Assembly (NCBI GenBank): GCA_012401045.1
Contig: GCA_012401045.1_4704.1
Origin: a phage
Direction: 5' to 3' (one strand)
DNA: 64,000 nt
Shown here: one piece after another, positions 29,185 through 31,838 of the stretch
Layout of the letters: each line of letters starts with the position of its first letter
How positions within the stretch are numbered: the first letter of the stretch is position 1
Program-made: the position numbers and the translations under genes
Notes under the pieces: generated by a model
What the model saw: only the letters and a program-made list of their open reading frames with translations
Told to the model about the DNA's origin: nothing
Databases searched by the model: none

Positions 29185-29511
29185 TTAATGCAGTTGCTTC
29201 TTAAAACCTAATTTAAGAAGCGTCATTCTCTTGTCGATGGTATCTAATGCTTCCAGCAAGGATTCACGCTGTTCTTTCGTAAGCATATCGACGCGTAGAC
29301 GTTCGTTAATTTCCGCTTTAAGCTGTATAGGAAGGGTTTGTGTAAGTATGCTATCAGCCTCCATCTCGTAACTATTTTTCGGTGTGGGTAATGCTTCAGT
29401 AACACCAGTGAGATAAAAACCGATAGTGGTTACTCGTTCATCCATTGCTTCTAGCAGTTCAGAACTTACCTCATCCACGATAGTTCTCCGTATTAGGGTG
29501 GGCGTACCCAC
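29185..29511 (-). CDS. hypothetical protein
   Basis: 108-aa ORF; track start is GTG inside a hairpin, an internal ATG at 29445 is possible. Confidence 0.4.
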   Translation of the reverse strand: MGTPTLIRRTIVDEVSSELLEAMDERVTTIGFYLTGVTEALPTPKNSYEMEADSILTQTLPIQLKAEINERLRVDMLTKEQRESLLEALDTIDKRMTLLKLGFKKQLH

Positions 29512-29525
29512 CCTCAGTTGTTAAT

Positions 29526-30545
29526 TTACACCGCCACCTTAGCCTTGATAGCGGGGTGTGATTGATATCCGACGAACACAAAGTCTTCGTAACGGTAATC
29601 CGTAATACTTTCCGGTTTACGTACAATTGTTAGCTTCGGTAATGGGTACGGCTCACGGCTGAGCTGCTCTTTAACCTGTTCGAAGTGGTTGTGATAGATG
29701 TGGCAATCTCCACCCGTCCACACGAACTCACCAACGTCCATATTCAGCTGTTGGGCAAGCATATGTGTTAACAACGAATATGAGGCGATGTTGAACGGTT
29801 TCCCAAGCACCGTGTCGCACGATCTCTGGTAAAGCTGACAGGATAAAGCACGTGTTGGTACGTTATGTGCATTCAACCAAAGTTCCGTTTCACTGTGTCG
29901 TACATCATCCGTAACCCACTGGGTTCTTAATACGTCGTTGCGTTGAACATAATCAACACGTTCATCGATCGTGAGCTCGTGGGTATAGAACTGATAGAAA
30001 CTGTGGCATGGGGCGAGGTGCATATCGTCTAAATCGCCTACGTTCCACGCGCTAACGATGATTCGTCGAGAATCAGGATCTTCTTTAAGCTGACGCATCA
30101 CGTTTGCAATCTGATCGTGATGTCTAACATACACGAGGTGTTTTAGCATACCGTCATTAAGAATGCCGCAATACTCATAGCCGCGTTGCATCAACTCACG
30201 AGTACGTTCTGTATCGTGCGGAACAACCACTTTGTAGTCAATCCATTCCCGCCACTGCCTACCGTAAATCGGTCCTAGATTCCCTTCTTCGTCAGCCCAT
30301 TCATTCCAGATACGAACACCGTTATCTTGAAGATAAGCAACGTTTGTGTCGCCGTTAAGAAACCAGAGCAGTTCGTGGATAACGCTCTTAAGGTGAATCT
30401 TCTTGGTGGTTACCAGCGGGAATCCTTTCTTCAAGTCAAAACGCATTTGACGTCCGAATACCGAACGGGTACCGGTACCTGTACGATCGGCTTTATCGCG
30501 ACCGTTATCCATGATGTCTTGCAAAAGGTCCAAATACTGTCTCAT
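29526..30545 (-). CDS. thyA: thymidylate synthase (ThyA family) with two internal insertions
   Basis: Track ORF trimmed to ATG at 30545 with AAGGA RBS. Near co-linear with E. coli ThyA ([28 protein letters not shown], catalytic [21 protein letters not shown]), interrupted by insertions of about 35 and 45 aa. Confidence 0.85.
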
Positions 30546-30546
30546 G

Positions 30547-30786
30547 TTAATCCTTGTTTCGTTTTGTTGACAAGATCTTATATAAGCGTTCAGCTTGTTC
30601 GAGCATATAAACCGCACGCTTGGATGCGCTCAATACAGCACAGTAACCACGTAATACGAACAGTGCGTGGTCAATCTGTAAACCACGCACCTTTGGATCT
30701 GACGACAATTCCAATGAAGTACCATCAGAAATCCATAACTCGATACTCTCTTTTTGTTCTTTCGTTAATGCTTGTTTCATAATCAC
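30547..30786 (-). CDS. hypothetical small protein
   Basis: 79-aa ORF immediately upstream of thyA in the same orientation. Confidence 0.45.
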
Positions 30787-30849
30787 CTCGTGGTAAAAGT
30801 AAATAGAGTTTTGTCGAGACGCCCTAATTACTTACAACGTCGGTTATCC

Positions 30850-31731
30850 TCAATAACAGTTATAATGGGTTCCAAGCCGCTCCGGTTTTCTCAGAAGACT
30901 ATCTTTAAGCGGTACGACGTCGATATCAACGTTTTCTGAATAATAACCATTAGAACTACCATACCAACGAATAACAACACATCCTTTTGCTGTACGAATA
31001 TGGTAAAACGTCCATCGCGTACGTTTGCAAAAGTCGTCATCCTCGTCTCTTTCCTCGGTTCTTTCTTCAGCGCTAAGTATCTTCTCACCAATAATGTCGT
31101 TAAGATCGCCATCGATGTCTTCAAGGTACACTTTTTCACAGCAATCTTGCTTATGGCAGAATTCAACAACGTTCCCATCGCCCCGATAGAAAAGAAGGGC
31201 AATACTGTATTGTAGCTGTTCGGCCGTTAAGTCTGTGGCGCAATACAAACTTTGATCTTCGGTTATCACCAAGACATTGTTGATTACGTGTCCGGCAAGC
31301 GCTCCGATCTTATTTACCGTGATAATCGGACGAACCGGTTCAGGTTGAACGATAGGGATACGAACACAGCCAATTAAAGCCATCCGTCCTTTCTTTGGTC
31401 TAACCGCAAGGTAAGGTGATTTTCTTGGGTGGTTATGTAGTCGTATTTCTACCTCGTTGAATTTAATCCCGTATATACCCAAAAACCGATCGAACAGTTT
31501 ATGAAATTCCTCGGTTGCCTCTTGCAGTGTGATGTTATTTACCGTGAGTTTATGTCCCCTGAACACCCGGGTTAAATCGATAACATCCAGTGTTTTGAAA
31601 TATATTTCCGTAAGGGGATGATCGGTGTTTTCCAGGTAAGTAATTGTTCTTTGAACCACGATTTTAGGTTGTGCACCTTTAAAACGTTTCAGGTATTTAA
31701 CACGATAACGGGTATGATCTGATGTTAACAT
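30850..31731 (-). CDS. hypothetical protein
   Basis: Track ORF trimmed to ATG at 31731 with GGAGAGGAG RBS, removing overlap with the upstream terminator hairpin. Confidence 0.5.
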   Translation of the reverse strand: MLTSDHTRYRVKYLKRFKGAQPKIVVQRTITYLENTDHPLTEIYFKTLDVIDLTRVFRGHKLTVNNITLQEATEEFHKLFDRFLGIYGIKFNEVEIRLHNHPRKSPYLAVRPKKGRMALIGCVRIPIVQPEPVRPIITVNKIGALAGHVINNVLVITEDQSLYCATDLTAEQLQYSIALLFYRGDGNVVEFCHKQDCCEKVYLEDIDGDLNDIIGEKILSAEERTEERDEDDDFCKRTRWTFYHIRTAKGCVVIRWYGSSNGYYSENVDIDVVPLKDSLLRKPERLGTHYNCY

Positions 31732-31789
31732 TTTAATCTCCTCTCCCGACTTCAGAGAATTCTTAAAATCCGTTAGTTTTGATAGACAG

Positions 31790-31827
31790 GATAAGACGGC
31801 ATAAAAGCCTCCCGTAATGGGAGGCTT
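31790..31827 (-). terminator. intrinsic terminator
   Basis: 9-bp stem AAGCCTCCC/GGGAGGCTT at 31805-31827 followed on the minus strand by UUUUAUGCC. Confidence 0.6.
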
Positions 31828-31838
31828 CATTAATCAGC

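Follow-up and report, generated by a model that had tools for sequence, protein, structure and literature searches.

The thyA gene in a 64,000-nucleotide (nt) stretch of phage DNA (GenBank assembly GCA_012401045.1, contig GCA_012401045.1_4704.1; here called the window) is best explained as encoding a canonical dTMP synthase with two inherited surface modules, the second of which would sit at the rim of the dimer, and we put the probability of this reading as a whole at roughly 0.65. The coding sequence, taken from the open reading frame (ORF) list, Pfam, and phmmer, occupies positions 29526 to 30545 on the minus strand (339 amino acids plus stop) and is the ortholog of gp141 of Escherichia phage vB_EcoM_Goslar. 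Pfam profile PF00303 covered the ORF end to end (profile positions 1 to 266 of 266; E = 8.3e-116), and the score of 386 bits against a cut-off of 24.3 places the product in the ThyA family. Judged by its sequence, the product is a thymidylate synthase (TS) of that family (PF00303, EC 2.1.1.45). Against the PDB chains of Escherichia coli ThyA, phmmer gave three collinear blocks (query residues 1 to 101, 141 to 188, and 233 to 339, matching E. coli residues 1 to 101, 107 to 154, and 158 to 264), in which 179 of the 256 alignable residues were identical (69.9%; 65% at the nucleotide level). The initial annotation had described a host-like ThyA with two internal insertions, one on either side of the catalytic cysteine in the sequence, and with intact LAPCH and substrate-binding motifs. 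The block alignment confirmed this architecture, with coordinates matching almost to the base, and all of the motif residues proved canonical. The likeness to E. coli ThyA also held, but the identity of about 60% estimated by eye was somewhat too low.

All of the dUMP, folate, and catalytic residues were kept in the query, namely, R21, E58, W80, W83, Y94, R160/R161, C180, H181, Q240, and R241, and the alignments also showed S242, D244, N252, D280, H282, Y284, and the C-terminal Val to be retained. The nucleophile Cys180 in the LAPCH motif (E. coli C146; codon at 30006 to 30008, minus strand) was invariant in both alignments that we made, as were the phosphate-binding residues R21, R160, R161, R241, and S242, the equivalents of E. 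coli R21, R126', R127', R166, and S167. Uracil specificity is represented by N252, which corresponds to E. coli N177, and by the network of E58, Y94, H181, H282, and Y284 (E. coli E58, Y94, H147, H207, and Y209). The folate site (E. coli W80, W83, and D169) was present as W80, W83, and D244, with a C terminus reading ...KVAV. Because all catalytic and ligand-binding residues are canonical, the enzyme is most likely a plain dTMP synthase. We propose that it would serve as the phage's own methylenetetrahydrofolate-dependent dTMP synthase, working by the standard mechanism in which Cys180 bonds covalently to dUMP.

With bounds taken from the phmmer blocks, insertion 1 comprises amino acids 102 to 140 (30126 to 30242, minus strand) and lies between helix G (...GRQWREW) and helix H (HDQI...), where it replaces the PTPDG loop of E. 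coli residues 102 to 106 for a net gain of 34 residues. Insertion 2 comprises amino acids 189 to 232 (29850 to 29981, minus strand) and extends the hairpin between the strands ...FYQFY and LSCQLYQRS, replacing the ADG turn of E. coli residues 155 to 157 for a net gain of 41. An AlphaFold2 monomer model built from a 31-sequence alignment had a mean predicted local distance difference test (pLDDT) score of 94.3 and no low-confidence segment, the insertions themselves scoring 90 to 97. In this model, insertion 1 forms a strand (101 to 107), a helix (112 to 120), and two further strands (124 to 130 and 135 to 143), and insertion 2 forms three helices (193 to 202, 204 to 212, and 217 to 226). Ratios of nonsynonymous to synonymous substitution rates (dN/dS) calculated against Goslar gp141 were 0.093 in the core and 0.30 in insertion 1; in insertion 2, the ratio was 0.085, so that this module is under strong purifying selection and is as constrained as the catalytic core. 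Since both insertions are kept in Goslar gp141 at low dN/dS and are predicted to fold, they represent translated protein sequence and did not arise by chance. Neither the isolated insertions nor the two larger insertions of phiKZ gave a credible match in Pfam scans, the only one, to DUF1869 at E = 0.008, being below the cut-off.

The insertions are inherited and not peculiar to this phage, because Goslar gp141 has the same architecture. That protein, which is annotated as a thymidylate synthase (YP_009820826), is of the same length as the query, is 94.7% identical to it in amino acid sequence, and has both insertions. Over 89% of a 25-kb stretch around thyA, the identity to Goslar, a nucleus-forming jumbo coliphage (PMC11895373), was 94.8%; no other close relative was present in the phage collection that we searched. 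Additionally, the insertions were present in SPN3US-like phages, Erwinia jumbo phages, CR5, phiKZ gp235, and 201phi2-1, and insertion 2 occurs across the Chimalliviridae. The chimallivirus enzymes (Goslar gp141, the SPN3US-like phages, phiKZ gp235, and 201phi2-1) share the query's two insertion sites and have homologous junction motifs, and a model of the 201phi2-1 TS superposed on the whole query fold (TMq 0.92). The sizes of the modules vary among them: phiKZ gp235 (488 amino acids; L002, 31805 to 33271) carries, besides insertion 1, a longer insertion 2 of about 75 amino acids and a further segment of about 120 amino acids, without a Pfam match, at the small-domain site of the Lactobacillus casei enzyme, while the 201phi2-1 TS (457 amino acids) has a larger insertion 2 than the query. 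Separately, we observed insertion-bearing TS of 339 or 344 amino acids (P0009-P0120), of the SPN3US TS size class and 63 to 65% identical to the query, in assemblies labeled Salmonella, E. coli, and Shigella. These were found on contigs of approximately 220 to 226 kb, which suggests that jumbo-phage genomes are carried in, or contaminate, many isolate assemblies.

Comparison with better-known TS showed how far the loops in question vary elsewhere. E. coli ThyA (264 amino acids; PDB 2TSC and 1AOB) lacks both modules, although the query keeps the enterobacterial signatures CQLYQRSCD and WTGGD. The L. casei-type TS (316 amino acids), with its 50-residue small-domain insert, is a precedent for a large folded insertion that leaves the chemistry unchanged; however, this insert is located at a different site, between WDEWAFE and GDLG, which precedes insertion 1 by about 12 residues, and it shows no detectable sequence similarity to insertion 1. 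Six additional residues in the FQFY...LSCQ hairpin of Pneumocystis carinii TS (PDB 1CI7) show that the hairpin tolerates extra length, and human TS has a short insert after QWRHF. Thus, eukaryotic and fungal TS do carry extra residues at the query's two loops, but these are short (6 to 12 amino acids) and are not folded modules of about 40 amino acids. T4 Td (286 amino acids; PDB 1TIS) has a short, E. coli-like hairpin (FNVRNGYLDLQ) without the insertion 2 module and aligned only weakly over insertion 1 (E = 0.11).

To describe how the modules are distributed, we aligned cluster representatives (the top 150 matches in a 50%-identity library) with E. coli ThyA, and 116 of them were alignable. 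Insertion 2 was called when at least 24 extra residues were present at the hairpin, and insertion 1 when at least 14 were present at its site. By these thresholds, 77 of the 116 had insertion 2, 63 had insertion 1, and 48 had both; approximately 43 with both would be expected by chance, and the modules are therefore distributed independently of each other. The concordance of insertion 2 state between nearest neighbors on core distances was barely above that of permuted data (81 versus a permutation mean of 65 and maximum of 83). Across 94 insertion 2-bearing cluster representatives, the module ranged from 28 to 95 amino acids, with a middle that was variable in both length and sequence. Its ends, however, followed recognizable motifs: the start read T-x-E-[LM]-[TS]-x-x-E-R (E in 69 and R in 81 of the 94), and the end read L-D-x-x-x-[VI]-P-x-R-x-L-S (V or I in 83 and P in 84). 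When insertion 2 with short flanks was searched against the PDB, only the flanks matched, and no chain covered the module.

A single degenerate DNA pattern representing the N-terminal junction (FQFY-x-x-E-[LMIVF]-x3-E-R), which at the protein level recovers only about one-quarter of the insertion 2-bearing clusters, was then run against two collections. Among 185,579 species-representative genomes (596 Gb), there were 56 pattern matches, and 7 of these were true insertion-bearing thyA genes, six on contigs of metagenome-assembled genomes and one on an isolate scaffold; the two that we examined, one of each kind, had phage-like neighborhoods. In IMG/VR (2.9 million viral contigs), 92 matches included at least 84 true insertion-bearing thyA genes, and about 35 of the 80 contigs listed were 200 kb or longer. 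Four metagenomic representatives that we looked up were all in phage contexts, on contigs of 25 to 370 kb. Given at least 84 such genes in IMG/VR versus 7 in the species genomes, together with the phage contexts of those examined, insertion 2 is a hallmark of a phage thyA lineage found heavily but not exclusively in jumbo phages. The module is essentially viral, and ordinary bacterial ThyA does not have it.

Insertion 1 behaved differently. Searched with short flanks against the PDB, it matched best to 3V8H, without gaps over 72 residues (E = 3.7e-6; about 31% identity). This structure is ThyA of Burkholderia thailandensis (BTH_I1680), a cellular housekeeping enzyme encoded by a chromosomal, putatively essential gene and 36% identical overall to the query. 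The two segments occupy the same loop, are of the same length, and have detectable sequence similarity and a superposable fold. Because of this gapless alignment, insertion 1 is not phage specific, and we regard it as a small-domain elaboration that is compatible with housekeeping TS function. In contrast, from the insertion 1 match to the C-terminal match, 3V8H is 27 residues shorter than the query, which leaves no room for a full insertion 2. As a protein query, the 72-residue fragment of 3V8H returned only one partial Paraburkholderia protein, and phages with an insertion 1-only enzyme exist, e.g., Salmonella phage Arash. Whether both insertions are common in ordinary bacterial ThyA, a point raised by the initial annotation, therefore has a split answer: insertion 1 occurs in one such enzyme, and insertion 2 does not, the few junction-motif thyA genes from the species genomes including two that lie in phage-like DNA.

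The placement of insertion 2 follows from TS topology, in which strand β-iii starts at the catalytic Cys and strand β-iv ends at the residues equivalent to Arg241, Ser242, and Asp244, these two strands forming the monomer-monomer interface. On this basis, we infer that the hairpin bearing insertion 2 lies at the end of the sheet that points away from the active site, separated from Cys180 and Arg241 by about 8 residues or 25 to 30 Å. The core column that co-varied most with insertion 2 was E. coli position 194 (L to M; mutual information, 0.37), followed, after two hairpin columns, by position 195. Both positions are in the loop entering strand β-v, which adjoins the hairpin tip, and their covariation fits a packing of insertion 2 against that loop. 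In the query, the strand immediately after insertion 2 reads LSCQLYQR, a sequence that, as a peptide derived from TS, is directed at the area of contact between the subunits of human TS (PMC8041318, PMC8773757). In PhiPA3, a TS-GFP fusion was kept out of the phage nucleus (PMC9067925), and the enzyme of the window is for this reason presumably cytoplasmic; there, it would act in the host cytoplasm and feed phage DNA replication. In the reading that we favor, the insertions would be inherited, folded surface modules grafted into length-tolerant loops, with the chemistry unchanged. Insertion 1 would enlarge the small domain by a three-stranded sheet and a helix, as in the Burkholderia enzyme, and insertion 2 would be a phage-lineage three-helix module rising from the interface hairpin at a distance from the catalytic Cys. 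Given its location relative to the dimer, as deduced here, the module would most likely strengthen or enlarge the rim of the obligate dimer or provide a surface for docking at that point.

Several points weigh against this interpretation. The rim placement of insertion 2 and its presumed contact with the partner subunit come from knowledge of TS topology and not from computation. The constraint on insertion 2, which equals that on the core, and its near-invariant Glu-Arg pair would point to a dedicated role, for example, in binding a partner or in regulation, and away from passive buttressing. Additionally, the strand after insertion 2, which is canonical in the query, is noncanonical in Goslar, P0002, and the SPN3US-like phages (CMLLARSQD in Goslar and CFYMMRSND in the SPN3US-like phages), so the region is not evolutionarily inert in close relatives. 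The searchable literature contains no enzymatic, localization, or interaction data on Goslar gp141.

An alternative that we consider unlikely is that the insertions, and especially insertion 2, dock TS into a phage nucleotide-synthesizing assembly or tether it near the shell of the phage nucleus. The candidate partners would be dihydrofolate reductase (DHFR), dCMP/dCTP deaminase, kinases, and ribonucleotide reductase, after the model of the proposed T4 deoxynucleoside triphosphate (dNTP) synthetase complex; for T4 Td, Finer-Moore et al. reportedly proposed in 1994 that surface inserts act as contacts or docking sites in a dNTP-synthesizing complex. The restriction of insertion 2 to phages and its enrichment in jumbo phages are consistent with such a role, as are selection as strong as that on the core and the near-invariant charged residues. 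In two of the four metagenomic phages that we looked up, DHFR was encoded within a few kilobases of the insertion-bearing TS. However, no partner was identified, and the genes around thyA in the window have no recognizable nucleotide-metabolism domains. A conserved interaction surface would not usually vary as much as the middle of insertion 2 does, and the module also occurs on phage contigs of 25 to 80 kb with quite different gene content. A broader proposal, which we hold to be rather improbable, is that insertion 2 is a phage-specific interaction or regulatory module on the TS dimer, serving a cytoplasmic dNTP complex or positioning at the phage nucleus in nucleus-forming jumbo phages, or else preventing the enzyme from pairing with the host ThyA, to which it is 70% identical, with the Glu-Arg and Val-Pro motifs as contacts.

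The initial annotation had also suggested that the insertions could alter substrate or cofactor use, and this found no support. A retuned chemistry, for instance, dUMP or dCMP hydroxymethylation leading to modified phage DNA, is very improbable, given that no catalytic or specificity residue departs from the canonical one, with Asn252 rather than Asp, Trp80/Trp83, and Val at the C terminus all in place. Moreover, insertion 1 is also part of a putatively essential bacterial ThyA, and insertion 2 would be far from Cys180 and Arg241 if the TS architecture holds. The position equivalent to E. coli N177 is Asp in dCMP hydroxymethylases, and a dCMP hydroxymethylase of the T4 gp42 type was rejected on the basis of Asn252; both the sequence and the fold of the query were much nearer to TS than to the hydroxymethylases. 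dUMP hydroxymethylases of the SPO1 gp29 type have no agreed sequence signature and are defined by their product, 5-hydroxymethyl-dUMP, and by 5-hydroxymethyluracil in the DNA. For the query, a core that is 70% identical to that of E. coli ThyA and a canonical active site would argue, indirectly, against this activity.

It is hardly credible that selfish elements (small insertion elements, inteins, or group I introns) left the extra segments behind as nonfunctional remnants or cargo, for although phage thyA genes are classical targets of introns and homing endonucleases and the thyA genes of same-clade relatives are split by intervening sequences, both segments of the query are in frame, under purifying selection, and confidently folded within the protein, and the relatives' introns are at a different site, from E. 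coli R166/S167 to D169, downstream of insertion 2. An intein was rejected because the segments are 39 and 44 amino acids long, versus at least about 130 for an intein, and lack the junction residues (N-terminal Cys/Ser and C-terminal His-Asn followed by Cys/Ser/Thr): insertion 1 spans I102 to ...YV140 and is followed by R-H-H, and insertion 2 spans T189 to ...TR232 and is followed by A-L-S, without His-Asn. A group I intron of the T4 td type was likewise rejected, the segments being in frame at dN/dS values of 0.085 to 0.30 and without a ribozyme match. Rfam gave no intron match in 29300 to 30800 (none to RF00028 at E values up to 1), and no direct repeats flank the segments.

The differences between the query and Goslar gp141 were unevenly distributed, with 8 of the 18 amino acid changes clustered in two active-site or interface motifs. 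The first cluster is at codons 176 to 179 (30009 to 30020), where the query reads MHLAPC and Goslar reads MALPAC. The second is at codons 237 to 249, where the query is canonical and Goslar reads CMLLARSQD..LGTP. This second cluster is inside a 90-nt patch (codons 231 to 260; 29766 to 29855) with 68% nucleotide identity to Goslar, compared with at least 90% for most other 10-codon blocks of the gene. Goslar and one metagenomic relative have the variant allele, and the window has the canonical one. A recent conversion from E. coli thyA was rejected as the source of the patch, which is only about 61% identical to that gene at the nucleotide level. In three same-clade relatives from IMG/VR, thyA is split after ...CQLYQR or ...QRSV by intervening sequences of 370 to 1,098 nt. 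Two of these matched the group I intron family RF00028 below the gathering score (L107, 4013 to 4382, E = 1e-9; L088, 11935 to 12783, E = 6e-6, with a 101-amino-acid ORF), and the third (L077, 5424 to 6521) has a 270-amino-acid ORF with a GIY-YIG-like motif. The intron site in these relatives coincides with the divergent patch of the window. Because their thyA genes are interrupted exactly there, the patch may be a footprint of intron and homing-endonuclease traffic, left as a recombination, co-conversion, or immunity tract.

With regard to its surroundings, thyA is preceded by an AAGGA ribosome-binding site (30551 to 30555, minus strand), 5 nt upstream of the ATG at 30545, and the ORF upstream terminates with a TAA at 30547 to 30549, both features being read from the sequence. 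The neighboring genes comprise those for DUF4262, DUF7448, and an Rv2179c-like exonuclease and unannotated ORFs, and they offer no clue to the function of the modules. The DUF7448 ORF (phrog_2650; 326 amino acids; 30850 to 31830, minus strand) lies 61 nt beyond the small ORF upstream of thyA and has no counterpart in Goslar, the megablast match ending at 30849, which marks an accessory-gene indel between close relatives. Its best phage matches, in Bacillus phages and Ralstonia jumbo phages, were only 32 to 40% identical.

Thymidylate synthase is among the best-studied enzymes and is a drug target whose dimer interface has been exploited for inhibitors. The architecture described here is shared with annotated relatives of the phage, and insertion 1 has a solved cellular counterpart. 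Insertion 2 is a widespread, strongly conserved, virus-restricted module, predicted to consist of three helices on the TS interface hairpin, that has no solved structure and is not described in the searchable literature on Goslar gp141, phiKZ gp235, or jumbo-phage TS insertions. In metagenomes, thyA genes of phages appear to be recognizable by its junction motif, FQFY-x2-E-[LM]-x3-E-R ... [VI]-P-x-R-x-L-S, albeit with recovery of only about one-quarter of the clusters that bear insertion 2. If insertion 2 is only a structural decoration, it would extend the known plasticity of TS only modestly. Nucleus-forming phages must make dTMP outside the compartment in which their DNA is replicated, and if insertion 2 mediates dimer control or partner docking, it would provide a handle on nucleotide supply in large phages.
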